Assembly (NCBI GenBank): GCA_000091205.1
Contig: AP006492.2
From: Cyanidioschyzon merolae
Taxonomy: Eukaryota
Direction: 5' to 3' (one strand)
Length of the DNA stretch: 64,000 bases
This document shows, one piece after another, positions 2,930-64,000 of the stretch. The notes below the pieces were generated by a model. It ran no database searches. It had not been told where the DNA came from and worked only from the letters and a program-made list of their open reading frames with translations. How positions within the stretch are numbered: position 1 is the stretch's first letter; each line of letters opens with the position of its first letter. The position numbers and the translations under genes are program-made.

Positions 2930-5900
2930 TTACTTTTCACCGCTCTGCCAAGGAAAACGCCCCCGTTGTACGTAAACGGAGCTCCAGTACTGCTGGAGTC
3001 CTAAATCATAGCACAACAGTGCTGTGCTCCAAGAAAGAATCCAAGGCCTTCTTTCTTGGCCACCTGTTTTAATTTCTTCCCGAGTGCATTGGACTTTAGC
3101 GCAGTGGCCATCCTGAGGACTAAGCGATTGCATTGAAATTCCGCCCGAAATGAGACTGCAGAACGCTCCAGAATCAGATAACCTTTTCCGATATCGATCG
3201 AGGCGTTGAACTCTCTTTGCGGAAGTTGCTTGCGCACATTGTTGCCTGTGGATTCACAAAATCGCAAGCTGCTAACTTTCCATTGACTCACCATCTAAAG
3301 GGCATTCAGCCTTCCGTATTCCATCTCCAGCGTCCGGCTCAGCGTTAATCTCTTTGTTTCTAGTTTTCTAAGCGTATACCCCTGCTCATGATGCGTGAAT
3401 GTCGTCCTGAGCGCTCCGAGGAGAATCGTACAGGGTAGGTACTTGCACTCGTTCTATGCTCTCGTGGAAGGAGCGGGAGTGCAGTCATTACGAGGTACAG
3501 CGTGTCCACCACCATAGGCTACCACAAAGCGACGTGACCAGTCGCTAATTTGCCTCCCCAGCTCATTGAACAAGTTGATAAATGCACGCGTCCTTCCTTT
3601 GAACAATCGATACATTGGCCAAACTCGCTCAGTCTCACGTAATTCTACGAAAGCTCGTAAGCGAGAGCCATTTGGACCGTCATGCACGCCCTTGGAAAGA
3701 AGCGAATAACCCATCTCGCGGTGCTCAGTACGGTGCTTAGAGCTTCGAGTTTGATACTGACGCATGCGTTCCACTTGCTGGCATGTATGAAAACGTCCAT
3801 CATGCGTGATTCTCGAGGATAGAGGGCCGAGGAAAAGTTGATCAGCTTCATCTGTTTCCCGTTCAGGTACTTGGCTTGTTTCTTCCGTTTTGTATGTATG
3901 GTATAGGCCGTGACACCCCTCCCTTTTCAAACAGTAATCCATTCCCTTCACGATGTCTTTCTCTTCGTGTACCCCGAATGGTGGCAAATGACTTACGTTG
4001 CCGTACTCAAGCCTTGATCTAAGAAAGCGCATGCAGGTTGATAAGCTCTAGGTCTTCATTGCCTCTGCAAAATTCTTTCCATATCCTCATTCCAAACGTG
4101 AAAACTTGGATGAGGTCCTCGCAGTTTTCGACAAATTGTTAGAATGCTTTATAATTGTTCCCAGAGACCAGCCGTATCGTGCAAAGGAAGGCATACATTG
4201 GAGTGCACATGTTTTTTAGATTCTATGATGAGATTTAAAGCCATATATGGCGACCGCATCGCGTAGGCGCTCGAGAGGACGAGGGCGTCCGGAGTCGGTG
4301 AAGAAGTTTTTCTTGACTGTTGAGGGTTCTCTTCTGGAACACGTAGAATCGCAACATGAAAGGAAAGCAGGTATCAGGCTTCAGCCATCCTTTGGATTGG
4401 ACCAGGATACGTTCGATGCAGAGACCAACAAGACGAGCTTTGAATCTATCCAGCGACTCTCGCTCTCGTTGGGACACCTTTCCCAAACTAACATCCAATC
4501 CGATCTCGTCCACAAAGAGCTCCTTATTTGCCGCTATTGACACCCCGAGGATTGCCTCGATTCGTCCCCATTTTTCTGGGCCAGTCAGGTGAGGCTGGAG
4601 CACATACAGGGTGTGCCGTATGAAGCGCCCACATTGACTCACATATAATGCTGTTTTCGGGGTTAGTTTGATCTTTGCTGGCTCCCACGCTTGTGTTGCG
4701 ATCGCCAACGCAGCAAGGCGACGCTTAAAGGCCTTCTGAGAACCATGTGTGCAAATATATGATACTACGATATATCCGTATTTCCTACTCTGTCGGAGCA
4801 TCAGTCGTATTGTTACATGAAGCTTTCATCGAATATGACGAGAGGGTGACGTGCAGCTGGCAGCCGCGTGTCCGGAGCTCGAACATATAGTTGCTTTACA
4901 AGGTGCATCAAGACGAGGGAAGCTATGACAGCCTTTGCTCTGTTGGGAAACTATGCGATTTCGAACTGCATGCTATACCTAATGTTTGGAAGAATCTCGC
5001 CGTTCCTGGTTTTCAATAGAGAGGCCCCGACGATGGTTTCAGAGCAGTTTTTCAGCTTCGACAGTTTTCCTTCCTCTCGCTCCTTGTCCTCTTTTCGGCA
5101 GGAGTTTCCTCTCGTTTGTCTGCTGGGAACTTCTTCGCTATACATAGGAGGGGCGGCATTAATGTGGCCCCTACATTCCATATGCATTTTTTGGAACTAA
5201 TACGCACTGGGTGGACAATTGCGTTGAATCTCGTCTTTTCAATGGATGTATCGATAATTCCTTAAGTAAATTTTTGTCACGTTTTTCGCCGCGAGCACTA
5301 CCACGGACCAATGTGCGCATTTCGGCTTCTGCCGGTCCACAATCAGAGAAGCAGCAAAGCAGATCGGGGTTTGTGAATGTAGCCAAAGATTTGTCGAACG
5401 GCTGTGTCACGGATGCGAATAAGTGGTCTATTGAATCGTGAGCTTGGAAACGGAGGTTGAGAATATAGAAGATGCCTCAAACCGGATTAAACCAGGCAGA
5501 AAACGCTTGGAAGAAGAGCTGTTCAATTTCAATCTCAGCAGCGTACTCCCTGACCGCCTTAGAGTCATGGGAAGCGGTGTTAAGCGAGAACGGAACGGGA
5601 ATACGTGCAAAGGGGAATCTACGAATTGCTGCGACGAAGCGTGAGGTTTCTTTACAGATCCCATTCGTTTAACGCTTTGTGGACGACCACACGGGTGGCT
5701 CCCCATTAGCGTTGATATTGTCGTTATTCTCGATTGTCTCTCTCTAATGATGGGGGGTTGCCCCTTTCCGAGCACGTATTCACAGGTCTCGAACTTCTCC
5801 CGAATGAAGTACCATCGAGTGAGAAAAGCGCCGGCCCTTTCTATAAGAAATGTGCGTGTTTCAGTGTGAAATCGATAGAGTGTTTCGCAATGCAAGACAG

Positions 5901-25590: not shown

Positions 25591-26161
25591 GCTGCGCTAT
25601 ACTCACTCCCAAGTTCCACTACTTATACTTCCTTTCTTCTATAAAGCGCGCTTGATATGCGCTCCTTCATATCTGGCAGGTATAAGATACGGCGGGTATC
25701 TCGCCGTATGGGCGAATCGCAGTCCTGATCGTTCGCAGACTCGGCTGGAAACACGCGATGCCAAGTTCGGAGCGTACACTATTGCTGGTGGCCTTATTTT
25801 ATTCACGACAGTGGCATGGCATGGCGAGCTCAAGGAAGTAGCCCTAAAGTACAAACTGCATCTGCGTTGAAGTCGTAGCAAAGTATAGTTTTTCAGTTGA
25901 ATCGTGTCTCTACCCCGAAGTGAGTGTATTCAAATGATTTTTCGCGGTTTATAGCAGAAGCGATCAATGTGCGTTCATTTGCAAAAATAAATAAAAAGGA
26001 TAGTTATGGAAATGGAAGTGGAGGGTCCTCGAAACACCGGTATCGCCGGCTGGCGGGAGCGACGGAAACGAGTCCCGACCAAAGTGAGACAAGACAAGAC
26101 CAAGAAGTAAAAGAGGGAGGCGCGACGTCAAAGGCTGCAAGAAAGACGACACTGCGACGAG

Positions 26162-26797
26162 ATGGTGGTGAAAGCCTGTCTTCTTGGACATATCAACGAT
26201 CCGTACAAGCAAAAGTTGCTAGAGGCCGTCAGAAAGCTTGTCGAGTCGTACTCGATGAGTATGATAAGGGACTCTTCAGGACGAATGCATTTGATGAAGG
26301 AGATATATCTCGACGTTATGGACATCAAAACCGTCGAGGCTCTGGAAGAGTTTTTCAACAAGACTTTTATTCGTCACCTGATGCTTGGCACAGGGGAAAC
26401 GTCGAGGAAAAGTGAGCGAGTGCACGACCTCCGCGAAAACATCGCCGACTTCCGCTTCAACCGTACTCGATACAGGGGTGACTGGCGCATTTACGCATAC
26501 GGGGCGATGAAGCACTTCACGATCCTACAGAACCATGTGACCATGAACCTCGAACGTTTCTTGATACGCTCTGTCTTCGTGCCGTACCCGGGCCTGTCTT
26601 ACAAAGCGATATGGGCCATCATCGGGGGCATCACGAACGATCGACAGAAGGAACAGGATATCGAATTCTTCGACAAGAAGGCATCACACTGGAGCATGAA
26701 TGAAGCTTCTGTGAAACATGCCGCTATTCAAGAGCACCGTGCGATCTTGGGGCTCGACAACCCAGCAGCAAAGGGTATCAGTTATAATAATGGATGA
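26162..26797 (+). CDS. Hypothetical protein (211 aa), no recognised domain
   Basis: Uninterrupted ORF with a verified ATG start and non-repetitive composition. Confidence 0.35.
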   Translation: MVVKACLLGHINDPYKQKLLEAVRKLVESYSMSMIRDSSGRMHLMKEIYLDVMDIKTVEALEEFFNKTFIRHLMLGTGETSRKSERVHDLRENIADFRFNRTRYRGDWRIYAYGAMKHFTILQNHVTMNLERFLIRSVFVPYPGLSYKAIWAIIGGITNDRQKEQDIEFFDKKASHWSMNEASVKHAAIQEHRAILGLDNPAAKGISYNNG

Positions 26798-27925
26798 AGA
26801 CAGGTGTTATCCCATCATTCTGTGGTGTTTAGTGTTTCTGAATCGAGAACTCGAACGCAAGCGGAGATGGAGCAGAGTGTGCGAAAAATGAAGAGTCGTT
26901 GAAACTGAAGAGTTCCCTACTAGAAAAGCGCGTGAACGTCGTCCCGTTTTGGAACATCAAAAGACATTTTGTTCCAATCGACTCCGCAGCGCTCAATGGC
27001 AACATAAAGGAGATCACTCCGGAGTTCGATATACGGAATATAGAGTTCACCGGCGAAAACCAGGAGACGTACTGGAAGAATATCTTCGATTTGAAACGTA
27101 TCAAAACGAACAAAAAAACTATTCACCGGGATGATCGACACCGATAGAGTCTTCATTTGTGTTCATTATCGGCGCTTGAAAGCGGGCCGCCCTTGTACGT
27201 CTTCGATATCGCCCTCGGCGAAGCATGAAGATGTGAACGAGGCAGGTCCTGCGACGCGGGAAGTGCAGAAAAACGACTTTGTCATAGGCGCGGGCCCGGG
27301 AACATGAATATCGTTACCATCGCGGCACACAAAAATGGGGAAGATGGCATTGACGGTATCTCAAGTCAGAAAGACTTGGATCTTGTAAAGAGCTCAAGAG
27401 CAAGACATTACCGAGACTCGGGTTTAATGAATGCAAGGGCGAAATGTGAGACGTGCAGTGCAAGAGTGAAAGAGAATCTGGAAGCGATCAGCCAGGAGAC
27501 GAGTCGCGGAGCGGACTTAAGAGCTTTTCGGGAGTTCACGAAAATTTGCGTTGCTCATGACGAGGCGCTCTGGAACGAGTGTACAAAGCCCCAGTGGGCT
27601 CGTCTGCGTATGAATCTATACTGTGGGAAGCAGCGTGCATTCGCTAACGTTTTGAATCAGATGAGCGCCCTCAAGGGGGACAAGAGTCAGAGGCGTGTAA
27701 TAGCATACAGAGCAGGGCGCAGGGTGTCCAAAAAAGAAGCATACCTGCTCCACCGACAAGAGCGTCCAAGGAGTGCGCACACCGTTTTGTCACAATACCT
27801 ATAGATCAGTTCCGGACGTCCTATACACACCATGAGCTGGGATGTACACTTCAGAGGGTCGAGATAGTAAAGTGCCAGCGGAGCCATAAGGATATTGAAA
27901 ATGCGTAGTGCTGACGGAAGAGTAA

Positions 27926-28130
27926 AGGGGAAGAAGGGCGAAAGTTGGAGGATTGCTTGCACTGGTGCGTACAACCAACGACGGCAAGAAACGCATGGAG
28001 CTTGTGAATCATGACTTTAATGCCGCCGTCTATGACAGGAGATGTGCAGTGCTAAAAACAAGACCGGCGGAGTTGACGCGAACGAAATTCGTGGAGCAGC
28101 CTTTCATACTCTATGTGTAAAACAAGCTGA
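27926..28130 (+). pseudogene. Copy F2 of the F repeat, with a TAA where F1 has Cys (pseudogene fragment)
   Basis: See F1. The in-frame stop at GRRAKVG marks the 5' boundary and TAA replaces TGC at the 3' end. Confidence 0.5.
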
Positions 28131-35619: not shown

Positions 35620-37146
35620 ATGCTCCCAGCTAGCGTTGGAGGATCAATCAGCTTGGAAACAGACAACCGTGGCGAGCGCACCGAGCGGGCTGCACGGAGA
35701 AGCTTCCGAGGTCGCCTAGCGTTCCTAGGTCCCAAACTTGGGGCTTGGGGACCCACGCAGAGCTGTTCGGCTGCTCCAAACTGTGCGATATCTGAAGCAC
35801 AGCCACGGAAAGGAGCTGGTCGCGGGACGGCTTACCGGCAGGGGAACTCTCTGCGGAACGTGAGGTTCGTTTTGAACGCGAACCAGGAGACGGGCGCTGT
35901 TGGACCAGCGGAAGCCCCCCATCGACGGCTGTCTAACTGGGGAGGCCTTGGCGGCGCATACGACACAAAAGTCTACCCGGCCAAGAGTTTGTGCTCTCAC
36001 TGCGGCTTGTGTGATACCCGCTACATCACCTATGTGCGCGACAGCTGCGCGTTCCTGAACCAGCACATTGCAGAGCTCGAGCAAAAGGTGCATGGACGCA
36101 GTCGCGCTCTGGATTCCGAAGATGAGCTCTATTTTGGTGTATTCCAGAGCATGCTGGTTGCACGCAAGAAGAAGCCTATTGCTGGCGCCCAGTGGACAGG
36201 CATTGTTTCATCGCTTGCTATTGCAATGCTAGAAAGCGGTCTCGTTGAGGGTGTGGTGTGCGTCCAGAGCAGCAAGGACGATCGTTTCAAGCCCGTGCCG
36301 GTAATTGCACGCAATCGAGCTGAAATCTTAGCGGCTAGGGTGAACAAGCCGACGCTGTCACCAAACCTGTCCGTGCTGGACGCAGTAGAACGAAGCGGTA
36401 TCAAACGTCTGCTTTTCATTGGCGTAGGCTGTCAGGTGGAAGCGCTCCGATCCGTTCAAGATCGAATCGGACTCGAAAAACTTTACGTTTTAGGGACTCC
36501 ATGCGTGGATAATGTGACGCGAGCCGGGCTTCAAAAGTTTCTCGATACGACCTCATCGTCACCGGAGACTGTCGTCTACTATGAGTTCATGCAGGACTTT
36601 CGGGTCCATTTTAAACACGATGATTCCGTGATTGGAGGCCCTGGAAGAAAGTGGGACGAAATCGTACCTTTTTTTGCGCTGAACACACAAGAGTTGAAGG
36701 AAGTTTTCGCTCCATCATGTCTATCTTGTTTTGACTATGTGAATGGTTTAGCGGATCTCGTGGTGGGTTACATGGGGGCACCTTTCGGATGGCAATGGCT
36801 TGTTGCACGGAACGAAACCGGACTGGAGATGCTAGAGCTCGCCCGACAGGTCTGCGGTCTGGAGGAGGGCCCCGTCGACGCATGCGGCGATCGACGCGCT
36901 GCTGTCCAGCAGTCGATCACTGCCTACGATCGAGCGCTTACCCTGCCTCGATGGATCGCTGAGTTTTTGGCCATCATCATCGGTAAGATTGGCCCAAAGG
37001 GTCTGGAGTATGCTCGCTTCTCCATCGACAGCCATTTTACCAGAAATTATCTTTACGTGCGGCGCCGATACCCGGAGAAGCTCGATGCTCATGTTCCCGA
37101 GTACGCGAAGCGTATCGTGTCCCAGTACAAGTTGCCGGATACATGA
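35620..37146 (+). CDS. HCAR: FrhB-like Fe-S flavoprotein of the HCAR/BciB family: 7-hydroxymethyl chlorophyll a reductase or ferredoxin-dependent divinyl reductase. It has a roughly 110 aa transit-peptide-like N-terminus
   Basis: PAKSLCSHCGLCDTRYITYVRDSCAFL is the Cys cluster. HGRSRALDSEDELYFGVFQSMLVARKKKPIAGAQWTGIVSSLAIAMLESGLVEGVVCVQS, LLFIGVGCQVEALRSV, LYVLGTPCVDN and GPKGLEYARFSIDSHFTRNYLYV follow. The protein is colinear with plant HCAR. Confidence 0.8.
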   Translation: MLPASVGGSISLETDNRGERTERAARRSFRGRLAFLGPKLGAWGPTQSCSAAPNCAISEAQPRKGAGRGTAYRQGNSLRNVRFVLNANQETGAVGPAEAPHRRLSNWGGLGGAYDTKVYPAKSLCSHCGLCDTRYITYVRDSCAFLNQHIAELEQKVHGRSRALDSEDELYFGVFQSMLVARKKKPIAGAQWTGIVSSLAIAMLESGLVEGVVCVQSSKDDRFKPVPVIARNRAEILAARVNKPTLSPNLSVLDAVERSGIKRLLFIGVGCQVEALRSVQDRIGLEKLYVLGTPCVDNVTRAGLQKFLDTTSSSPETVVYYEFMQDFRVHFKHDDSVIGGPGRKWDEIVPFFALNTQELKEVFAPSCLSCFDYVNGLADLVVGYMGAPFGWQWLVARNETGLEMLELARQVCGLEEGPVDACGDRRAAVQQSITAYDRALTLPRWIAEFLAIIIGKIGPKGLEYARFSIDSHFTRNYLYVRRRYPEKLDAHVPEYAKRIVSQYKLPDT

Positions 37147-49773: not shown

Positions 49774-50476
49774 AGTTTGATTCCAGATTTTGGACACACG
49801 ATGAAACCCCGCTCCTTTTCATCACGACATTACAGTCTGAGGTACAGAGAGCACTCGACAGGGCGTTTACTGTTCACACCATAACATCCACTTGGTTGCT
49901 GCGGGGAATTCCAGCGCTCCGCATGCATCCATCAAGGAATCGCTGGCAACTGGACATTACCCAGGCACCACTGCATACATTTCAAAATTTGCGCACCTTT
50001 TCATGCCGCAGCGCTCAGGATGCTCGGTGCGTCGGTCATCCACACCGCTGTGAACACTCGAATCCGGTATCTTGGTCGAGAAACGAGTCCGCGTTGCCAG
50101 GTATCGCCACGGCGTCTTGGGGCACTTGCGCCGCAGACCGGTGTACACCAGCTGCGCCCTGTGCTCGCGTTATAGCTATGCTTGCGACGGTCTGTTCCAG
50201 TGAATCGCTGTACTGCACTGCCGATGGACTCGTACCGATCACCTTGAACACGAGCAACATCCACAGCAAACTGCAAAAACATCGATCATACAGTGTCGGC
50301 ATAAGCGTGAAACGCGCTGGGATTCCGATGCCTCGCGAAGCTCGGCGCTCACCGTGGGCACTCGGCATCGCGGGCGCTTGTCGCGAGCGCACCCAGGCAC
50401 AGACCCCCGACACAACGTCGCAATCAGGCACGATACCGTGAAAAGCACCTGGCAAACGCGGCGCTCTCGTGTGCTG

Positions 50477-53400
50477 CTAGCATCCGGAATCCATGCCGGC
50501 TGCGAGCCATTGCCGTAACGTGTCCCCGAATACCGCCGGCAAAGCGGCAATCTCCTCTACAATGACATAGAAAGGAAAGGGAAAATCTTCCAGGTAGCGT
50601 CGCACCTGCATGCGTCCACCCGGGGCAAAACCGACCTGCTTCATATCGAGAACAGAGGTACGCCGGACCGCGCTCGACGCCTGCTGCTCTTGTTCTCGAG
50701 TGCCAGCAACCTGATCCAATATGAAAAACACGATCCGCAGACGTTGTGCATTCGCTTCTCGAATGAGCGCGCGGAGGGCGTCTCGCTCTCCTAGTCGCCC
50801 GTCGGAAAGAATCAGCAACAGCTGCCAAGAATCGATCACACCGGCTTGCTGCTCCCGTGCCTCTCGGAACAACGCCGACGCACATTCTAACAGAGCGACC
50901 ACATTGGTCGCCTGCTGCTGGAACGTAAACTGACCAAGCAGCTGATCACCAACAGAGCCAGCGGCGGGTATTCCGGCGTGTAAGGAATGCACGACTTGTG
51001 CATCGCAACCGAAACGGATAACACCCAGATGTGCCAGTTCGAGTCGCTGCAGCGCCGCTGCAACCACCACCAGAGACTCTAGTGCCAAGCGAGACGCACC
51101 TGATTCGTGCATACTCGCAGAGTCGTCGACCGCAACAACGATATCGTATCGACGACGGTCTGGACGAATACGACGCATCCAGATACGATCGCGGGTGTAG
51201 TTGCTGGCCACATAATCAATGAGACGACGCATATGGAGCCGCTTCCCGGTGCGAAAGTCGCCTGCAAAACGCGTCATTTGGTTGTACTCGAGGACGGGTT
51301 CCAGTCGACGGCTGAGGTGTGCAATCGTCGCCTCATGAGAACGTTCAAGTGCGAACCAGGTGATCAAATCAGCATCAGCAGCCGCTTGTTCCAGCGAGTA
51401 TCGCGTATGGTCCGCGTCCATGTGCTGTGGTGCGATATCCTGGTTGTCATCCTTGTCGTTTTCGTCGTCGCGATGATGCAGGGACTCTTGGCGTTGCGTT
51501 GCGCGCTGGCGTTCAGGTTCTGGTGTCTTCGCGGTAGACGTCTGGCGTCCTGGTGACGCTTCCGCTGGTGACAGTGTCGACGACGCGCTCCACTGTGCAT
51601 TGCGATGGCTTGCAGCTGGTACCACCAGGTCGTCGACATTCGAACCGGTCATCTGCTGCACCTGCGGCTGATGCGGCACGCCCGTTGGATCCTGGTTGTC
51701 GCTCCAGAGATCGTCCGTCAACGCAGGCATACGATGTTGTTCATCTGCCGCAGCTGGTTTGTTCTGTTCCAACGAAGTTGATGTTTCCCCAGTGTACGGG
51801 TATGGCAAGTCAAGGGGTGTTGCGGTTGGCGCGGCTCCACTAGACCATTCTGCTGCTACGCTTGACGCAACATGAGCCTGCCGGTCCGGAGCGAGTGACA
51901 CCGCCGCCTCTGCTGCATACGCGGGTGCGCCTTGCGCCGAGGCGCTCCGCTGCTCTTCGGTGCTTTCCCAGGATGCTGGCTGGGGCGGCGTTGTCCAGTG
52001 CATAGCGTCCTGGCTCCAGATCGTCTCCGGCACATTCCTGGCTGCGAGCGGCATCGTTGTCGCAGCATCGACCTCGGTATGAGCCGCTCCGGGCCTCTCC
52101 CTGGGATTTTCCGATACCGCTTGCATGACCGGTGCCTCTGCGGATGCTGGAAGCGTACCTGACGACGCGGCTGCGGCTCCAGTTGCTGCTGCGGATTGCG
52201 ACGGTGCACTTGCAGCGTTTCCAGACTCGCCTCCGGTAGCCAGTTCGGGGAGCGCAGCATTGGCTAGTATCGAGGATTCAGAGACGGGCGAGCGGCCTGT
52301 GTGCTCTCTCGTCTCCGAGGTATCCCGAGCGTCAGACTGAGACCTCTCGGCATCTGCGGGAGACGCGTTCATCGTATCTCCATTGTCGGACAGAGCGTCC
52401 TCGTCTGAATGCAACGCGCTCCTCGCTTCGGCCTCCTCCGAGGCGTCAACAGAGACAGAGTCGACAGCAGGTTCGTCGCATTCCCAGTCTTCAGCGAATG
52501 GCAAGCCTTCAGATGCCTCTGACACCCTATCCGGAGACGAGTTGCCGTCCGGATGCACCAGGTCCTCGAGGATGTCGGGAGCGTCCTGCTCGGGCTCGTT
52601 CAGCGACGCTTCCGGGCTCATGGAGGGTTGCGCAGGCCCCGTGACTGCACACGGTAACCGCGGGGCAGCTTCTGCATCCACGGTGCTCTCGTTGCCAGAT
52701 GCAACCACCTCCGCTGGTGCATCTGTCATCGAGTCGGGTGCCGCTTCCTCCATACTCGTCGCAGCTAGAGCTGTTGCTGAGGTCGCTGTCCTGTCAGCAG
52801 GCAACGCGCGCTCCTCCGGGCAGGGCGTTGGTGCAGTCTCCGTCGCGGGCGGCGCTTCCGTGCCCCCTGGGTTGTTCATGTCACCGTCGACGTCGATGTC
52901 GTCTTCTGGGGCTTGCCCCAGAGTCTCGTTCTCTGTAAACGGTGCCGAGAACGCCGCTGTGGTGAGCAGCTCCTCATTCGATTCGAGGTCATCAGAGGAG
53001 CGCGGCACGCCCTGCTCCGCTGCACTATTCGTCGCTCTGTCGGAGGCGAAGAGCTCCTCACCAAGCTCGGATGCTGCCAGGTCGGCGGAACAGTCACGAG
53101 CATCCGCATTCAATGCTCCGGTGTCAGCAAAGCCCGCTCCCTGGCGCATCACATCCTTACCAACTGCATCGCGCTGTGCATCCACTGCTGCATTGTGAAG
53201 CAGCATCAGCGAACGATCCGCAAGACACAACAAAACCTGAACGATACGCACAAGCGACCAGTGCAGACGCCGCAACATGGCCAGTTTGCGCTCAAGTGCG
53301 CCATGCTGGTGCTCAGAGACATTCGCAGTGCCGTGCACTTGTCCCAGGCACAATACAAACGCTTCGCTTGACGACGGACGCCAGTGCAGGAGCTCCATCA

Positions 53401-56400
53401 GTGTCCAGTCCGGCGTTGCAGTCGGTGTCGCCGTCTGGCACTCTGGAGACGCTCGAGGGCTCGCTTCGGGGTGGCGTTCAGACGCGGGACCCTCGTTATC
53501 CCGACGAGAGTCTTCGGATACTGGAATTGGACCCGCCTCCATTTGGCCATTACCCCGCAGCGATGCAGGCACTCGTCGCTGGAGTTGGAGTCGGAGCCTT
53601 GCAACTTGCTCCAGAGCACATCGGTACAGTTGCGTACGCAATGCCGTTGCCGCAGCACTTGTCGTGCGAGACGTGCCAGACTGAAACGTACGCAGCAGTT
53701 GCTCGAGGTCGGTTGCGCTGCTTTCGATGCCGTCCCAGTCGTGCTGATGGAGCTGACGCCCAAGTTCCGCCGCCAAGGCCGCAAAGCGAGCCCCCAGTGA
53801 CGCAGCGTCTGGCCAACAGCGACACAGTACGGCCAGTTCCAGCGCAACACGGCGAGTATCCATTGTTGAGACAGACGCTTCATCGATTATCGAATATTCG
53901 GCAGCATGACGCTGCGTCTGTGTATCCAGTTCCGTGACTGGAGCACCACGCCCCGGGACCGCTCCCTTCGACAGCACTCGAGTCGCGTCGTGCGCACAAG
54001 TCCAGCTCGCGACCGCCTCCGAGTTCGAAGGCGACGTTTCCGCCGCTGCCGCTGCTGCTGCTGCGCAACGTACGGATGCTTGCGTCTGGACTTGCACAGC
54101 TGGATGAGCATGCGCGATCTGCCAGGTTTCGCGTTGGTCAGCGAGGTCGCTGAGCAGCCCGCGCACCAACGCCAGCAACGTAGCCACGGTGCGCAAGCCT
54201 CGCAGCTCTGCCGGATCCGTAGTAGCCGTCAGCTGCTCCCAGAACTTGGTATCCACCAGCAGCAACATGTCCAGCACATCGAAAAGAGCTGCATGATCGT
54301 CGTCGCCGTCGTCCGTATTGCTCATGTACGGTGTGTTTGGCTGCTGTTGCTGTTGCTGTGGCTGTTGTTGCGTCCGAAGACGCTCCGCTTGTCCCAGGGG
54401 GTATCCCCAGGGCGCCCGCCCGTAATAGAGCACGCCAGCGGGCCAGTGCAACCGCAAAGGCTCTCGCAATGGACGCTTTCGTATCCTCATTGGACGCAGC
54501 AGTTGAAAGATAGAGCGATAACAACGCTCTATAGATGCCCAACAGCACTTGTTCTGGTGCGCTAGGCGCTCCAGTTCCCTCAGTGCAGCCAACGACGCCT
54601 CGTGTACCAGCGATAACTGCTCCAACGCTGGTCCAGCTGCCTTCACGTTGGTGTCCATGAACGATTCTTGCGTCGAGCTGACCAATGCGGTTTGCGAACG
54701 CTCCAAGAGCTGCTTAGCGACGCGTTCACGAGCTCGCTGCCAGAGCGACTGCACACTGCTGTCCAGCAGGTGGTCCAGGGCTCGCCACTGCTGGCGCTCC
54801 TCCTGCTGCAGCTGCTGGACTGCTGCTCGGTAGCGCTCCCAGTCGGCAAGCTGTCGCCACGGTCGCTGCATCTGCATCCCGAAGCGCAGTCGCTGCAGTT
54901 GCCACTGGGGGAGCTGTTTCTGTTGAAGCTCATCAATCGCTTCCTGCACTATCTCGCAGTATCGTACGTAGTAACGGTAGACAAGTACCAGTTGCGCTTG
55001 GATAGCTTGCAAGCGAGGCTCCAGCTGGCTACCGTAGCGCGCAAGCAACCGCCACAGCTGTAGCAACGGAAAGACATATCCCACGGCGAGCGTCTCCATG
55101 CCCTGTCCACAACAGACGAGCCACTGGGGCACACGCTCATCGCCGAGGAGCATCTCTGGGTCTTGTCCAGCGCTCGTACGCTTTCCCATTGCATCCATCA
55201 ACGAGCATCCTGCCCTGGACTGTTCAGAGACTGCGGCGCTCTCGGCGAGCGTCGCAACCTGCAACCAACACGGGAGCGTGTCGATGACCCGCTTCGAATA
55301 GCGCAGAGCACGCTCTTCACGTTGCCAACGAGTCTGGGCGAAACAAGCGAGTCGCATCGAGACTAGCAGCGAGCCGAGCTGCTCCCAAGTGTCGCGCAGC
55401 GCACCATTAGTCGAATCATCTGCATCGGAGAAAGCACAACGCTGGGCAATCTCTTGTGCCAGGGGTTCAAGGAGCTCTCCCAGGAGCAGCTCGAGCGCTT
55501 CCCGCTCCCGGCCAAGGGCTCGCAATTGTTCGCTTCGCTTGGAACAACTATCCCAGCGCGTCGCAAGGTGCATCCAGAGGGCTCGGTCCGGCTCTTGACG
55601 CGCCCAGGCACGCAGCTGGTCACCCAGGCTAGAGAGCGCTGCTCCGTAGCGCCACGTAGGTTCGGCTGCGCTTCCATGCAGCGAGGCACTGGACTCTGCA
55701 ACCGGTCTCTGCCACGCAGTCCATAAATAGGGCAGGGAGTGTGGATGCTGGAGGACGCTCCACCAGGTAGTTGCCGGTTGGATACGCAACAACTGTATGG
55801 ATGCCACCACGTAACTCCGCAGAAGCGCTTCATAGCTGTGCTTTTGCAGTGCTGCGAGCACTTGAGCAGGGAGCTCTTGCGTACAACTCAAAGCTTCCAT
55901 TCCGATGAGCAGCAGCGCGAGAGCTACGACCACACCAGAGCACCACTGAGTCGTTTTCGTATCCACAGAGGAAGTACCAGGGGCAGCAGTGTTGACCAAT
56001 TGAGCCAACAGCCCGGGCAGCGATTGCCAACAGGTGCTCCCTGGCGGTACTGCTGGGTGCTCGCTCGAGTTCCAGCGTCGACCGCAGCCACCATCCGTAG
56101 CTATCTGACCAGAAGCAATCGCATTGCGCTCCGAGAGTGCTGCATTCCGTACAAAAGCAGTACTGCATGCTATCTGTCCAGCAGCAAGGACGTCGATCTC
56201 CGAGAGCACTGCATTCGGGACAGAAGCAGCACCAGTGGGTATCGCTAAAGGGACAGGTAGTGCGTCCGCCCTGCGCTCCAAGTCCTTAATCACGCTCACA
56301 TACGAATCCGAAGGCGCTACTGCTGCTGCTGCTCGCTGCGAATCTCGTGTCCCGTGAGTTGCCTCCAGAGACAGCAAACTGTATTGGTGCCAAAGACGCA

Positions 56401-59400
56401 ACGCTTCCCATTGTGGGGTTTCGTCGGGATCCAGGTCCATTCGAGCACATGCAGTGCCGGTTGATGCGGTGCGCTCTGGCGAGCCTTGCCGCAGTGGCTC
56501 TAGTTCGGACTCGAAGAGGCGCCTACAGTGTGCAAGCGCCTCATCGGAAGCTTCCGCGGCTGCAACAGCACCTGCTCGACTCCACGGCATTCCAGCTGCT
56601 GCAGCAAGCGTTCGCCAAGCCTCTTGTGCGGACGTTTCCGGAGCCGCTCCATTGGGAATCGATGCAGACGCCTGGGCGCGTCGTTCATCGAGACCAGGAA
56701 CACCTCCGGCAAGCACCACATCCAACAAGACTGCCCAGGCATGCCAGAAACGGGTTTGTGCGCTTTCCTGTCTACAAAGCAGTTGCTGCAACGAAACTAG
56801 CAGCCGTCGAGGTGCTCGAGCAAGGCGCACTGGTGCCAACAGGCCGCCTCTCGCTCCAAGTGATGGCTCAGGCTCGCGCTCAGACGCAAACACCGACTCG
56901 AGAAGCAACAACATCCGCGGCCTCCAGAGCGTCGACCAGTCCAGTGCGTCGGTGGTGCACATCCCAGCGACACTCTTTTCGGCATCGAGAAGCAGCCTCT
57001 CATGGTATTCCTGGTACCAGTCAAGCACGACAAGTCCGGCGGTATCATGCAGGGCGTGAAAACGTCCACCTGGCAGCAGTGCTTCCGCTGCTTGCAGTCC
57101 CTCCAAAGCCCCCAGGCGTTCCGCTGCACTCCAGACGTGTGTCCAGCCTGCAGCGGATTCTCGAGGAAGCATTCGGAGCAGCGGTTCCTGCTGCTCCCTC
57201 CAAGCATGACCGTACGCGAGTGCCGCTTCCAACGTCGGTACCGATGGGCGATAAAACCTACGCGCTCTAGCCTCGGCGCGTAGAGCCGCAAGCTGTGCTT
57301 CCGACAGGTCCACACGACGAAGGAGACTTCGATCTGCGGACCCAGGCAGCGTACAGCTGTAGCCGTTAAAGGCCTGCTCCACAATGCGATCATCACGCTG
57401 ACGCAGGGCCTCCATCCACGGGAGCAGCTCCTCATCCAGATAGCCATATACCTCGGCAGGATCGACCACTGCAGGCAACGACGGCATGCGACTCGCGGAC
57501 TGCTCGGTTTCCGAACGACCGTGCTCTTCGATGCCAAGCACCGGTGCAGCAGTCGGATGTTGAAAGCGACTCGCTGACTGCCCGGTTTCCGAACGACCGT
57601 GCTCTTCGATGCCAAGCACCGGTGCAGCAGTCGGATGTTCAAAGCGACTCGCGGACTGCTCGGTTTCCGAACGATCGTGCTCTTCGATGCAAAGCACCGG
57701 TGCAGCAGTCGGATGTTCAAAGCGAGGAATGCGCCACCAGAGCACCGCATGTCTCTGGGGTACAGTTCCAGGAGCCGTCGTACCTCCAGTGGTCGCAGGC
57801 GCGTTCCGAGAGCGACCTGCGGGCCCCGGTGCGCCCCGTTGAGCGTCCAGCGTCGGCACTAGACCTCGTTCCCAGAGTGCTTCCCAGAGATAGGCATCGA
57901 GCGCGTCGGCGGGCGTGCTAGTGCTGGGCTTGATATGCTGGGCGTCATTATAGGCCCCAAAGTCGTACTGCCGCTGCAACAAGGCATCGGCGAGGCAATG
58001 AAACGCGCATGAACCCGACATGAGTGACTCCCAGTGGTGCGGTAAACCGCAGCAGGTGCGCTGCGGGTCGAAATAACGCTCCTTGGCCTGTTCGCTTGAC
58101 TGCATGGCGTGCAACGTCTCCGAGGCCTCGCTGTCGTCCAGCAGGTGCAGCGCCCAGCACACGAGATGCCAAGACAGCGCTACCTGACGAAGCGCACACC
58201 GCACAAACCAGTCGTTTTCTCGTTCGGGAGCGCCCAGCGCAAGCGCTACCCGCATGGTGGCAACCACGACCACGAGAGGCCATGAAAAGCGCACTAGCCA
58301 GTTGTTCAGCTGCATCCAACGGCGTTGCAAGGCTCCGCGTTCCTGGGTGTTCGCGAAAGCAGCCTCGTGGCTAAGAAGCCTCTCGCTTGCACACAGCAGA
58401 CCCGCTAGATCCATCAGCACAAACCAGGCAAGCCATCGTGGCGTGGAACGCGGAAGCAACGCACTCACTGCGCGCTGTGCGGGTTGCTCAGCAAGCCAAC
58501 GAGTGCGAACGCTAGCATCCGTCGTAAAAGCAGCAACAGCAGCAGCAGCAGCAGCAGCAGCAACAGCATTGGCTGGTGTGCTCTTCTCGACTGCTGCGCT
58601 TTCGCCGGGGTCATCGAGCTCCGCATACGCCCCGTCCTGTTGGACCAAGGTATTCGATGTGAATGATTCACGTGCCGGATCACCGGGGGGCATCGTGAGG
58701 CGACAACATGCCTTGGCGGCGGCAGTCAACCAGTCCACAGAGGCCGCATATGCCGCCTCCCTGCCCTGGTTGTAGAAACGTTGCAAGAGACTGGATGCAT
58801 TCGACGTGTACGCATTCGGCAGGGCGCGTTGCCACCAGCACCAGCGCTCACCGCTCGACGAGCATACCTGGAAGCATGCAGCGTCAAGTTCAAGTGCGCT
58901 GCGTATTCTTTTCCAAGCTGGCTGAAACACAGCAACATACCCACGGGTGCTTGATCCAACTGGATGCATTATTGATGCTCGCCAGCGTGCATCGTTTCCA
59001 CTCTCCTGAAAGCGTTTTCGGGACAGGCTCTCGAGAGCATCCAGTCGAATGGCCGTAATCTGCTTCCTGAACGGGCCCTGTATCGTTGACGTCGACCAGG
59101 GAATCTGCCATGGCCAAAAACAACGCCAGTAAAGGAGCAACCACACGAGCACTTGCTGCTGCTGCATTGCAAAAGTCGATTCTGTGCCTGTATCGGGTAT
59201 GGGATGCAGCTGCAGCGTATCCAGTAGAGGTTCACCGCTCAATGACGCGGATCCGGTACGCCCAGGACTGGACGCTCCATCTCTGGGCAGTCGTGCAACC
59301 GGGGCAAGCGAACGAGATGCTCTGCGAAACGTCTCTGCGGAGAACGGCATCAATGGATACGATTCTGGTCCTAGACCGATGAGCGCGAGACGCAAACCCA

Positions 59401-62400
59401 AGTCCAGTGGCGAACTCATCATCAGGAAGAGGCCAGCAGCTTCCGCGTGCTGTCGCAGAGCCTGGATGACGCGGGTGCGGCACAGGTGCACCTGACGGCT
59501 CGCCCAAAAAGCCAGAACGTTCGCTTCGGTAGCGCGTGAAGGAGCGCTGCCCCAGATAGAGGCGTTTGTTGCATCCTCGTGACTCACCGCGGCTGGTGCA
59601 GACCGCTCACCTCCGACGCTGATGGCAACTGGCAACGTCGAGTTTTGCTCGCACCAGCTAGCGGCAGCTGTATCGAACAAGTCCAGCACCCGTGCCAATC
59701 GATCCAGATCGTATTCAATTACCGGACGTAATGGATCATAGAACAAGGAGATCGATGTTCGAGTGATACCGCTCCAAAGCGCTTCGGCAGGTACTTCGCT
59801 TGCCGCTGCAAAACACCGAGCATCCATGGGCTTTGTCGCAGACGCTGCTAGAGCATTCCCTCGTCCAGTAACGTCGCCACAAGGCAATGCTTGCCCCTGG
59901 AAAGCTGACGCTTGCGCGTGTGCTGCCTCGACGGGCTGCTCGGAAGCAGCGCTGCCGCCTACCCACAGCGTCAAACAACGGCTCATGAGCGCCTCGGAGA
60001 GAGCCGGGCTCTGACGTGCAGCACACCCTGCAGCAGCTTCCGAACAAGTTGCCGTCAGAAAAATACGACACCTGGGATGGATGACAAAGCGTCGGATGCC
60101 GGTGTCGCTGGGGTCATCGTGTTGGGATAACATTGGTGGCGCTTCGGGTACCGGGAGCTCGAAAACATCCTCCTCAAGCAGCGGATTCAAACGATCCAGT
60201 AGAGCCGGTGACAACGCCTCCACGTGCCGCAGTAAGAGCCAGTGTCCTTGTTCAAGGGCAGTCAGCAGGCGCGACGGACGCCAAACGAAGTACTCAGGGT
60301 CTTGTCTTGCGGACGATGAAGACGAACGTGCTCTACTGGAGTTGTGCAGCGACGACGAGGCGCATATCGTTTCCCTAGTCCGCTGCTCTGAAGCGTGGCT
60401 GTAACCCCCGAACAGATCCGTAATATCGGTTTGGTTGCTGAGCACCACCTCTGTGAGCGGCATCGCCAGGATTTGCGCCATACCCTGAACAAGGCTGGCT
60501 TTGCCGCAGCTCGCTGGACCAACCAGCAAGCAGGGCCATCGCTGGGTAACCGCTACGGCTAAGGCTGTCCAGTGGGGTGCCTGACAGGGCCTCCATTCCG
60601 GCACGCTCTCAATGGCGAGACTGGGTCCCAGCAGACCGTGTGCACTGGGACCCTGCACCTCGCGTCCCGCTACGAGAACTGGACCCCAGCAAAAGCACCA
60701 CTTCAAGTTGCGGGATGCGTCTGGTGTTTGGATCGTATCCCCGATGTACAAGTCAGAGGCGCTTGGCAGCTGTTTCGATTCGTGTGCGGATACTGTGCCC
60801 AGGGGAACCGCATCACCCGAGTTTTCCGCCAGAGCGTCCCCCGAGACTGCTACAGGAACGTTGTTCCCAGTCTGGAACTGGGGTGCTATCTCAGAGGATT
60901 GCTCTGCCTCCATGGAATGCGGGGTCCGTGAAGAATCGTCTCGAGTTAGCGACTGAGACAGTGGACCTGCGTGCATCGCTGTTGCCCTGTCTGCGCGGTG
61001 CTCGCTAGTGTTGTTGCGACAGAAAAGTGCACAAGGATCCATTTGGAGCCACTTTCGGAAAAGCTGCTCCCGGAACGCAGAAACATACCGAGGCTGCCAG
61101 CAACTGCACGTCACGAGCGATGCAGTGCCGCCCACAACCGGGTCTACGATACCGCAAAGGTGATCCTCCTCAGTGGATGCTGCATCCATCCGGAGCACAA
61201 CTTGCGGCAACGGGGTCCGAAACGACCACCAGGAACCATCTGGTGCTGGCGGATATTTCTCAAAAGTGACTCGTTTGCGCCCGGGTGTCGGTATAACTTG
61301 GTTTCCTGCATTTGACTCGCCGTTGTGTGCATCCAAGCGCTGCGTAACGAAAACTCGTGATAGAGAAAGCGAACCTTTTGGATGCTTTTCCGTGACCGTC
61401 TGTGAAAGGTATCCTTTCCGGTGCGCATGATCACTATCATCGTTATCCTTGTTCTTATCGTCATCATCGTCGTCGTCGTCGTCAGCAGCGGCAGCAGCAG
61501 CAGCACCGGATTTAGTTGCATGCTCATGGACTGCCGCCAATACACGAGATGCTTTCCCGGGTGCTTCCGCATCTCCAGGGCTTGACCCCTGCACAGTATC
61601 CTTCCCAAATACCGGATGCACGGCAACATCCACTTTGCGCCCTGTATGCGCAACAGCTAGAGTCTCGGGGACTGAAACCGCTCGTTGGGCAACCTCCAGC
61701 GGCATCGGCAGAAGCAGCTGAGCCCAGCTGCGCAGCGGCACACTGGGGTACGCATTCCAGAGCGTTGCCAGACGCAGCACATCCCGCATCGTGGCTGGTT
61801 GTGCATGAACCAGGCTCAACTTTTGAGGCCACCAGTGCGTCAGCTGTTGCAACACGTCAGGAAACTGCTCCAATGATGGAAATCGTAGCCTCAGAACCGC
61901 TTCATAGTCTGCAGCATCATAGTCGTCGCAGGGAATCCGCCAAAAGCGGTTCAGAAAACTGCGTGGGAGCGAACGCCGCCCCAGCGTCGTTCCCGCAGGA
62001 TTCTGTGTTGCGAAGAAACGAAAACCCTCGGATGCTGGAAGCGAAAGTGCAAGCTCCGGAACATGGAGCATTCGGCGATGATCCAACACTGCATTGAGAC
62101 CTTCGAGAACCGACTGACTCGCCAGGTTCAGTTCATCAACGAGAATCCAGTCGCCTCGCTCCATTGCCGTATACAGTGGACCTCTCCGGAAGCAGAACCC
62201 GCTGCCGTGGGGAACAAAGGTCCCCACCAGGTCCATCATTTCGGTGAACTCGCTGAGATTCACCCGGTGCACCTTTTTGGAGAGCGTTTCAGCAAGCGCC
62301 AAAACAAGTTGGGTCTTCCCGACCCCTGGCGGGCCCTCCAGCAGAACAGGTCGCTGATCCACAGCACGAACTCGCTCCAAGCGTCGCAGGTTGCGTTGCA

Positions 62401-63759
62401 CTGTGGGAGCAGTCCAGCACCAGGAAGGGCGCCCGGTCGACTCGACCGGTTGGCGCTGGTGCTGCAGTACTTGTCGCTCATGTTGCAGTTGCACACCATG
62501 TATCGCAACTGCATGTTCGTCTTGAAAAAGGCTCTGCAACTCGTTCCGAAGCGAGAGTCGAGACACTGGCGACAAACTCCAGGCACTCTCCCAGAAGGCT
62601 TCGAGGGCCTCGTAGAGGGCCGCAACCACAGCACCTCGATGTTGCTGTTGCTGTTGCTGTTGCTGTTGCGCTCGATAGATACGAATACAGGCCACGAGGT
62701 CCCGAATGCTCATAGCAGGCTGCTGGAGCATACGCTGACGCTGGAGAAGCCATTCGAGGGCGCGCTTCCAGAGTTCCAGCACCAGCGGTGGTTCGCTTGC
62801 CAACAGCTCCGCAGCCACCGGGAAGAGATCATCGCAGGAGCCCTCATAGGGTATCCATATCTCGGTAAAGCGATTCCGTATGGCAGCGGAGAGTTCCTTC
62901 TTGCCAAAGTCACCGCTGGGGTTCATACAAGCGAAGACGCCAAAGCCCGGAGCTGCCTGCACCTCTGGAAGGGGTTCACCTCCGTGTTCACTGAGCACCA
63001 GTTTGCCTGCGGGTTCTAGCACACTGTTCAGACGCTCCACCACAGCGTCGTCGATCATGTTGATTTCATCAATCAGGAGGAACGCACCTTGTCTCATCGC
63101 CGAGGTGAGTGCTCCATCTTGCCACTTGAAACGAGGTTTTCTCGTGCTCGTAACCACTTTGGATGCCGTTGTAGCGCAACTCTGCGGCACGGCAGTCGAT
63201 GGAGGATCGTTCAGGGCCTCTGTGCTCACTACGGGAACGTAACGACCTACGAGGTCCGCAGCTTCCGTATGACGATGACCATTCAGGGTATAGAGTGGCC
63301 GATTCAGGGCAGCAGCTAATACGGCACAGACCGTGCTTTTGCCGATACCGGTCTCACCAATTAGAAGTACCGGTTCTTGGTTAAGAATGGCGTGTAAAGC
63401 GAGTCCTAGTACGCGTTGCAGACTCGGAACCATGACGAGTCCCAATGCCTCCACCGCAGTTGCCTCAATGCGTTGCCACAGGAGTGTCCCCAACGGCACC
63501 GAGCCCGATCGATGCAACGCGTTGCCAGTTTGGTGATGTCGCTGCTGTTGCTGCTGCTGCGTCTGATAGACTTGATCTGCGCTTGCTTGGGGCTGCTGTT
63601 GCGGCATTTCTGCCTCATGGTCTTGATCTGCGCCTGTACTGTCGAATAGATTCAACCAGGGACACTGGTCGCGCTCAGGTAGCGAATCCAGCAGTTCCCG
63701 GAGCGTCAACGGTGGAAGCACATCCACCATCGCCATGATGGTATGCTCCCTAGTCACCG

Positions 63760-63801
<42 letters not shown>

Positions 63802-64000
63802 GCTCGCTTGTCGACGCTTGCACGCCACTGGACGTCCTCGCGTCATTTCGTGGTGACTCCTCCACGACACCCAGACCTATGTGTTGACAGAGTACTCTCC
63901 AGACAGCGTTACGTTCCGCGGGTTCGCGCAGGCGCTCCACCAGCAAACAACGACCGTGGAAACGTAGCGCTTGCCGATCACGTGCTCGCCGGTTGGCCCA
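50477..64000 (-). CDS. MDN1: Midasin (MDN1), partial. The C-terminal roughly 4500 aa including the VWA/MIDAS domain are present. The N-terminus (AAA1) lies beyond the window end because the reading frame is still open at 64000
   Basis: Successive AAA P-loops are GETGIGKST, GPPGVGKTQ and GPASCGKAS, with Walker B ILVDELNLA. The long D/E-rich linker is present. C-terminal DIVVAVDDSASMHESGA...LLLILSDGR is the MIDAS/VWA motif. Confidence 0.9.
57489..57724 (-). repeat. In-frame 78-bp x3 tandem repeat inside the midasin CDS, encoding a 26-aa unit
   Basis: The unit gcgactcgcggactgctcggtttccgaacgaccgtgctcttcgatgccaagcaccggtgcagcagtcggatgttgaaa repeats with period 78 (cggttt at 57505, 57583, 57661). 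The protein reads FEHPTAAPVL(C/G)IEEH(D/G)RSET(E/G)QSASR three times. Confidence 0.85.
63756..63800 (-). repeat. (CAG)n / (GCT)n trinucleotide run encoding poly-Ala in midasin. It is one of several codon-triplet microsatellites in this gene
   Basis: cagcagcagcagcagcagcagcagcagcagcagca. Similar runs are at 58535-58566, 62650-62680 (gttgct x5, poly-Gln) and 61455-61500. Confidence 0.8.

Follow-up and report, generated by a model that had tools for sequence, protein, structure and literature searches.

The 64,000-nucleotide stretch of chromosome 10 analyzed here from Cyanidioschyzon merolae 10D, a red alga (hereafter, the window) ends, on its minus strand, in the gene for midasin (Rea1/MDN1), a giant nuclear AAA+ motor of ribosome biogenesis, and this gene contains a 78-bp sequence that is repeated three times in tandem. 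Tandem Repeats Finder detected one array at 57488..57725, with a period of 78, 3.1 copies, 95% matches, 0% indels, and a score of 441, and this array was the sole repeat of period >6 within the whole window. Its three head-to-tail units, denoted U0, U1, and U2, cover positions 57491-57724 and are encoded on the minus strand, which is within 2 nt of the interval (57489-57724) that had been assigned to a triplication in midasin by an earlier inspection of the letters (the sequence-only reading). A 48-nt piece of the unit had three matches in the window when up to two mismatches were allowed, compared with none in each of 100 dinucleotide-preserving shuffles. By both the repeat score and the shuffles (0/100), the array is therefore far beyond chance, and its head-to-tail units fall in the 10-100 bp range of minisatellites.

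An in-frame triplication in the midasin gene

Compared with their consensus, U0, U1, and U2 carry 2, 2, and 1 nucleotide changes and 2, 1, and 1 amino acid changes, respectively, in agreement with the one to three substitutions per unit reported in the sequence-only reading. The units of 10D differ pairwise at 3-4 of 78 nt (~4%), with five variable sites among them, four of which are non-synonymous and one synonymous. Since the unit comprises 26 codons and the open reading frame (ORF) is uninterrupted, the triplication is in frame, as had been claimed, and the array is a coding minisatellite. The downstream flank begins with the same three nucleotides (CGC) as each unit, and the base preceding the array (57725) is T, the same as the last base of each unit, so that the junctions share 4 nt of microhomology. 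Each unit has a net charge of -3, a pI of 5.07, and a D+E content of 17.9%. Of the description of the units as acidic and serine-rich, the acidic part stands, but the serine content is only marginally raised (11.5% vs 8.2% in the whole protein).

The ORF that carries the array in frame was found at 50477..63946 (13.5 kb, C-terminal 4,489 residues), and the frame is open to the window edge at 64000. It matched yeast Rea1 with an E-value of 5e-223 and S. pombe Mdn1 with an E-value of 8e-226, over seven aligned stretches. The part of the protein encoded within the window contains three dynein-type AAA_5 stretches (Pfam, 2.6e-59), which align to the AAA4-AAA6 region of Rea1, and the other three of the six AAA+ modules of midasin lie past the window edge. 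Direct reading of P0078, a near-identical full-length protein, gave six P-loops (GEPATGKR, GETGVGKT, GATAVGKT, GETGIGKS, GPPGVGKT, and GPASCGKA). Such near-identical full-length midasins from the environment have 6,001-6,003 residues, and the repeat occupies their residues 3589-3666. At the C-terminal end of the ORF, residues 4160-4483 (the last 324) match the MIDAS domain of Rea1 (structure 6qt8), with a DDSAS motif in the translation; the Pfam VWA match was weak (20.2 bits vs a cutoff of 23.8 bits). A D/E-rich region is located between the linker and the MIDAS domain. The three AAA_5 stretches, the Rea1/Mdn1 E-values, and the MIDAS match all bear out the assignment of the host gene to midasin. 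Introns occur in only 0.5% of C. merolae genes, and the genome sequence was completed without gaps, using shotgun and BAC clones (PMC1955436). This low intron frequency explains the uninterrupted 13.5-kb ORF.

The midasin of C. merolae shares with Rea1/Mdn1/MDN1 its dynein-type AAA+ modules, its long linker, its D/E-rich region, and a MIDAS domain at the C-terminus that carries a DxSxS motif. Unlike Rea1, which has 4,910 aa, the C. merolae-type protein has ~6,003 aa, and its linker is without a sequence or profile match to the yeast linker. The sequence-only reading, which called the protein otherwise conserved, was right for the AAA and MIDAS domains, but not for the part of the linker around the repeat, which is 32-37% identical to that of sister genera and undetectable in yeast. 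The structural papers on Rea1 that were consulted describe the linker as stem, middle, and top domains and mention no 26-aa tandem repeat (PMC6286127).

Several further features of the midasin gene were observed. Its G+C content (57-62% in window positions 50001-64000) is higher than that of the other 50 kb (47-55%). In addition, the gene contains micro-repeats, namely (AGC/GCT)n at 58529-58568 and 63761-63800, (TGTTGC)5 at 62640-62669, and (GCT)n at 56316-56339. These tri- and hexanucleotide repeats encode poly-Ala and poly-Gln runs, whose lengths vary between haplotypes. For example, 'STSEH' is followed by 13 Ala in 10D but by 6 in P0077 and by 8 in P0078, and a poly-Asp run is 9 or 10 residues long.

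Table 1 Coordinates of the repeat array and of midasin features in the window ("partial aa" are residues of the translation encoded within the window).
Feature	Position	Strand	Description
Repeat unit U0	57724..57647	minus	26 codons, translation RFEHPTAAPVLCIEEHDRSETEQSAS; position marker A50 (Asp) in all five three-unit haplotypes
Repeat unit U1	57646..57569	minus	translation RFEHPTAAPVLGIEEHGRSETGQSAS; G65 and A72 in 10D
Repeat unit U2	57568..57491	minus	translation RFQHPTAAPVLGIEEHGRSETEQSAS; position marker C7 (Gln) in all three-unit haplotypes
CGC microhomology	57490..57488	minus	first 3 nt of the downstream flank, same as first 3 nt of each unit
Length-variable, disordered-looking linker segment	57470..57850	minus	partial aa 2033-2159, 127 aa; contains the repeat
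Midasin (Rea1/MDN1) coding sequence	50477..64000	minus	C-terminal 4,507 codons, intron-less; N-terminal ~1,500 codons past the window edge
MIDAS (VWA-type) domain	50498..51469	minus	DxSxS motif (VAVDDSASM); E 1.2e-60 to Rea1 MIDAS structure 6qt8
Canonical D/E-rich region	51947..53296	minus	partial aa 3551-4000; D+E 18-25% per 200-aa window
AAA6 module region	60047..60568	minus	partial aa 1127-1300, of which 1219-1300 match the Walker-B region of Rea1 AAA6 (5jcs 2191-2262)

Position of the repeat in the linker and in related midasins

The repeat occupies partial aa 2075-2152. Because partial aa 1219-1300 align to the Walker-B region of Rea1 AAA6, this position is in the linker, ~850 residues after AAA6. 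The D/E-rich region lies ~1,400 residues downstream, and the repeat does not belong to it. Like that region, the repeat is acidic, of low complexity, and probably disordered; unlike it, the repeat is a true tandem repeat and has 18% D+E compared with up to 25%. In C. merolae, ~2,150 aa separate AAA6 from the D/E-rich region, with helices predicted in a low-confidence AlphaFold2 (AF2) model. The helical linker of Rea1-type proteins has ~1,700 aa. No match to the Rea1 linker was found in the PDB by single-sequence phmmer or with a three-species profile.

In a charge-hydropathy analysis, the 78-residue repeat and the 42 residues preceding it, which are rich in Pro, Gly, Ala, and Thr, fell on the disordered side, and both 200-residue flanks looked folded. 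The AF2 model, built from a three-sequence alignment, had a mean pLDDT of 36.7 and is unusable; it placed helices on both sides of the repeat and had its lowest confidence (24-30) over the repeat itself. The segment C-terminal of the repeat (57230-57490, partial aa 2153-2232) is conserved across three cyanidiophycean genera. A weak but repeatable resemblance to the C-terminal part of Nog1, a pre-60S factor, just after the repeat (8i9r_CH 436-512, phmmer E 0.003-0.007) was without Pfam support and was treated as chance or compositional.

To place the repeat among its relatives, as the sequence-only reading had proposed, 1.84 billion representative proteins were scanned exhaustively with HMMER, using 1,100 residues around the repeat as the query. 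The scan yielded three relatives only, which were a 99%-identical fragment, the midasin of Cyanidiococcus yangmingshanensis (P0062/P0067; KAF6004501.1, and at full length KAK4529759.1 with 5,188 aa), and one metagenomic relative (P0063/P0066, midasins of 5,337 and 5,365 aa). Earlier homologous-protein searches with the linker around the repeat had given no match, likely because the 90% cluster representative, P0061, starts downstream of the queries.

The flanks of the repeat align well in Cyanidiococcus and P0063/P0066 (YLWEALWERG upstream and VVDPAEVYGYLDEELLPWM downstream). However, the interval between these flanks is 36-40 residues in Cyanidiococcus and P0063 compared with 127 in 10D, and a clean 60-column alignment gap lies opposite units 2 and 3 in Cyanidiococcus and P0063/P0066. 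What is left of the interval in the relatives aligns loosely with unit 1 (IPRFEHP vs LPCFEAF), and we gave no weight to this correspondence. Since both flanks align in the relatives and units 2 and 3 face a gap, the expansion is specific to the Cyanidioschyzon lineage, within a stretch that was already variable in length. The linker here is 32-37% identical to that of the sister genera (36% for Cyanidiococcus).

The midasins of the relatives were also searched for tandem duplications of their own. P0063 has private in-frame tandem duplications at aa 819-916 and 2942-3015 (four copies of 20 aa and two of 28 aa), and a further 28-aa unit occurs once in P0063 and twice in P0066 (aa 2149-2220), although both belong to one 90%-identity cluster. 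No tandem duplication at ≥70% identity was found in the Cyanidiococcus midasin. The same kind of event, a private in-frame duplication, thus recurs in this algal class. The duplications in P0063/P0066 resemble the C. merolae array in being in the same protein, in the same algal class, in variable regions, and with units of 20-28 aa. They differ from it in that their sequences are unrelated and their sites are others, namely the N-terminal AAA part, between AAA modules, and the early linker.

Several other identities of the repeat were considered and rejected. It is not a dispersed or mobile module, given that no further copy of the unit was found in the window and no match other than midasin among the 1.84 billion proteins. 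An intron was rejected because the frame is open throughout, the first unit sits at the position of the ancestral loop in the relatives, and so few C. merolae genes have introns. An RNA element was not supported, with zero Rfam matches anywhere in the window. Finally, a Pfam scan of the units found no family above threshold, and the match to the PCF11 RFEGP repeat (PF20844; E 0.0038) was discarded with 17.9 bits against a gathering cutoff of 43 bits.

Natural haplotypes of the array

Contigs carrying the locus were gathered via close alleles of a neighboring gene and by one metagenome scan, and were 99.0-99.4% identical to the window. All environmental data are metagenome assemblies, and P0077 is available as protein only. 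In addition to the 10D reference genome, three units were found in L003 (JGI 3300053653), L010 (Ga0078972, a contig of 112,790 bp), L011 (JGI24721J44947, with an N inside U2), and P0077 (ENA). Two units were found in L015 (JGI 3300050377), and one unit in L016 (Logan SRR29605863) and in L012/L023 (JGI 3300005861). According to a published study (PMC11662350), a 'C. merolae 10D-like isolate' is dominant in JGI short-read metagenomes sampled at Lemonade Creek in Yellowstone, a possible source of the present contigs.

The arrays of L003, L010, L011, and P0077 are collinear with that of 10D and bear the same position-specific markers. Every three-unit haplotype read as DNA has A50 in U0 and C7 in U2, and the protein P0077 shows the corresponding Asp and Gln. 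Given these shared markers, the triplication is older than the split of the sampled three-unit haplotypes and cannot be an artefact of the 10D assembly. Furthermore, the flanks differ by 0.4-0.9% between haplotypes compared with ~4% between units, so that the duplications are several times older than the sampled diversity. They are nevertheless far younger than the split from Cyanidiococcus, given the 36% identity in this part of the linker. The duplication had been called recent, which is apt in that it is younger than the genus, but less so in that the three-unit state predates all sampled haplotypes.

The markers also differ in placement between haplotypes. 10D has G65 (a Glu-to-Gly change) in U1, whereas L003 and L011 have it in U2. 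L003 has C7 in its U1 as well, so that this unit is identical to U2 of 10D. The array of L015, [T20 A26 G50 G65 A72][C7], joins the head of a U0 (T20, A26) to the tail of a 10D-type U1 (G65, A72), and is the exact product of one unequal crossover between an L010-type U0 and a 10D-type U1 within the identical stretch 27-49. A26 and G50, just 25 nt apart, are found together in both L015 and L016, and real reads must therefore contain the hybrid unit. The placement of G65 and C7 and the hybrid unit of L015/L016, all read from metagenome assemblies, constitute mosaic units of the kind known from variable number tandem repeats (VNTRs), and we take the exchange between units to be real. The sequence-only reading had offered recent duplication or ongoing concerted evolution for the high identity of the units, and both the divergence of units and flanks and the shifting positions of G65 and C7 accord with it.

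The array is also the most variable part of the region. Among the four three-unit DNA haplotypes, 9 of the 56 segregating sites in 6 kb lie inside the 234-bp array, which gave the highest sliding window (binomial P 3e-4). Eight of these nine changes are non-synonymous, compared with 33 of 47 in the flanks, a difference that is not significant (Fisher P 0.42), and pN/pS is 2.5 in the array and 0.79 in the flanks. The flank value indicates that constraint on this part of the linker is weak.

Five independently assembled JGI contigs of ~34.8 kb from different samples (L001, L002, L013, L014, and L024) all terminate at 57503-57506, having entered the array by 13-16 nt. Contigs ending inside the array indicate that assemblers break at the repeat, and the 78-bp array is a systematic break point of short-read assemblies for C. 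merolae.

Outside the midasin gene, four neighboring ORFs in the window exactly match proteins of strain 10D, including CMJ082C, an indole-3-glycerol-phosphate synthase, and a WDR48-like protein. A gene on the plus strand at 35620-37146 encodes a protein with FrhB_FdhB_N and FrhB_FdhB_C domains (coenzyme F420 hydrogenase/dehydrogenase beta subunit) in this red alga, and is so annotated in 10D. This family includes the 7-hydroxymethyl chlorophyll a reductase of phototrophs. In addition, the plus strand is purine-rich at ~25900-28000, with an AT skew of 0.19 and a GC skew of 0.13 in the 26-28 kb bin. This stretch contains several short plus-strand ORFs that are mutually out of frame and without a Pfam match, and possibly represents a decayed gene or element.

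Origin and significance of the array

We consider it probable that the array is a lineage-specific coding minisatellite in a disordered, length-variable loop of the midasin linker, which arose by slippage or unequal exchange and whose units still swap sequence with one another. In this account, 78 bp (26 codons) of an already existing surface loop would have been duplicated tandemly twice in the C. merolae lineage, with replication slippage or unequal sister-chromatid exchange across the 4-nt microhomology (T...CGC) as the likely mechanism. The extra 52 residues would be tolerated in an otherwise essential motor because the unit length is divisible by three and the loop is under weak constraint. 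The three units would then keep exchanging sequence by gene conversion or unequal crossover, which could yield mosaic alleles and probably shorter, two-unit alleles in natural hot-spring populations.

Comparable systems have been described in yeast, where intragenic coding minisatellites or VNTRs are said to have been reported in cell-wall genes by Verstrepen et al. (2005, Nat Genet). As in those genes, the units in C. merolae are head-to-tail, have a length that is a multiple of three, show high inter-unit identity, form mosaics, and appear to be gained or lost as whole units. Unlike them, the C. merolae array has three units, its copy-number variation is plausible only, its copy number is tied to no phenotype, and its host is an essential nuclear AAA+ motor and not a surface adhesin.

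Several observations weigh against this explanation. The placement of the repeat in a disordered surface loop was read from composition and from length variation among three species, the structural model was unusable, and sequence comparison gave no correspondence between the linker and that of yeast Rea1. Some of the excess variability and some mosaics could be errors of short-read metagenome assembly within a repeat, and the 1:8 ratio of synonymous to non-synonymous changes, compared with 14:33 in the flanks, may be a sign of diversifying selection, even though the two ratios do not differ significantly (Fisher P 0.42, as above). Alleles with one unit have weak support: L012/L023 is chimeric, with its first 707 nt off-locus and a join at the (GCT)n tract at 58529-58568, 900 nt from the array, and was therefore rejected as proof of copy-number polymorphism, and L016 resembles a collapse. 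Logan assembles at k=31, and the unit of L016 (T20, A26, G50, A65, C72) is what would result if the assembly path switched inside the identical 38 nt (27-64) of a two-unit array like that of L015, so that L016 is not independent evidence for one unit. The two-unit state of L015 could still be a partial collapse. A two-unit allele is nevertheless likely, and the polymorphism in copy number anticipated by the sequence-only reading, which L015 and the two one-unit contigs suggested, is plausible, although the one-unit contigs proved unreliable.

If the triplication were real but stable, then the mosaics, the excess variability, and the one- and two-unit versions would all come from short-read assemblies that mixed co-occurring haplotypes. 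We regard this as unlikely, although the contigs stopping just inside the array show that assemblers struggle there, and the chimeric one-unit contig, the path switch that accounts for L016, and the N inside U2 of L011 all fit such mixing. Against it, in the clonal, clone-sequenced 10D a different unit bears G65 than in the environmental haplotypes, A26 and G50 must share real reads for any k ≥31, and P0077 (ENA) and L011 (JGI) independently agree on unit content. The more radical reading, in which the reference itself was expanded by misassembly and the true locus has one unit, draws on tandem repeats being a classic source of assembly error and on the single unit of two environmental contigs. 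Its probability is close to negligible, since three units, no more and no fewer, with the unit-specific markers in unchanged order were recovered in four de novo assemblies made independently of one another from different samples and with different pipelines, the 10D assembly has no gaps and is based on BAC and shotgun clones, and the three units are non-identical, unlike the product of duplicated reads. The possible artefact raised in the sequence-only reading is refuted on these grounds.

It is also conceivable, but improbable, that the units are functional and selected, as a multiplied acidic Ser/Thr short linear motif for phosphorylation or partner binding, or as a tunable spacer of the linker under diversifying selection. 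Such selection would fit the pN/pS of the array, its density of non-synonymous changes (~6x that of the flanks), the three-unit state kept across all complete haplotypes, and the adjoining segment that is conserved across three genera. However, a ratio of 8:1 is near the neutral ~3:1 for so few sites and the excess is not significant, the best Pfam score of the units was far below its cutoff, and sister genera manage without the extra units. Furthermore, unrelated repeats occur at other sites in the midasins of the relatives, a pattern that speaks for a mutational process and not for a site-specific function. Still less probable is a fast-evolving functional linker module whose unit number and sequence are under diversifying or balancing selection in hot-spring populations. 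Were this true, the units would tune the length or flexibility of the linker or multiply an acidic phospho-motif next to the conserved downstream segment, and natural alleles of one, two, and three units would differ in 60S ribosome maturation.

Taken together, the array is probably an ordinary, neutral, lineage-specific coding minisatellite. It adds a further case of a known phenomenon, from a genome that is already published, and nothing in the evidence points to a function for the units. As the most variable 234 bp in 6 kb, the array could serve as a PCR marker for typing Cyanidioschyzon strains and populations, and the break of short-read assemblies at the array is worth knowing for anyone assembling these metagenomes. 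The array matters little for the biology of midasin, beyond showing that a linker segment of an essential motor tolerates 52 extra residues. It also shows that the giant midasins of Cyanidiophyceae grow in part through private in-frame tandem duplications.

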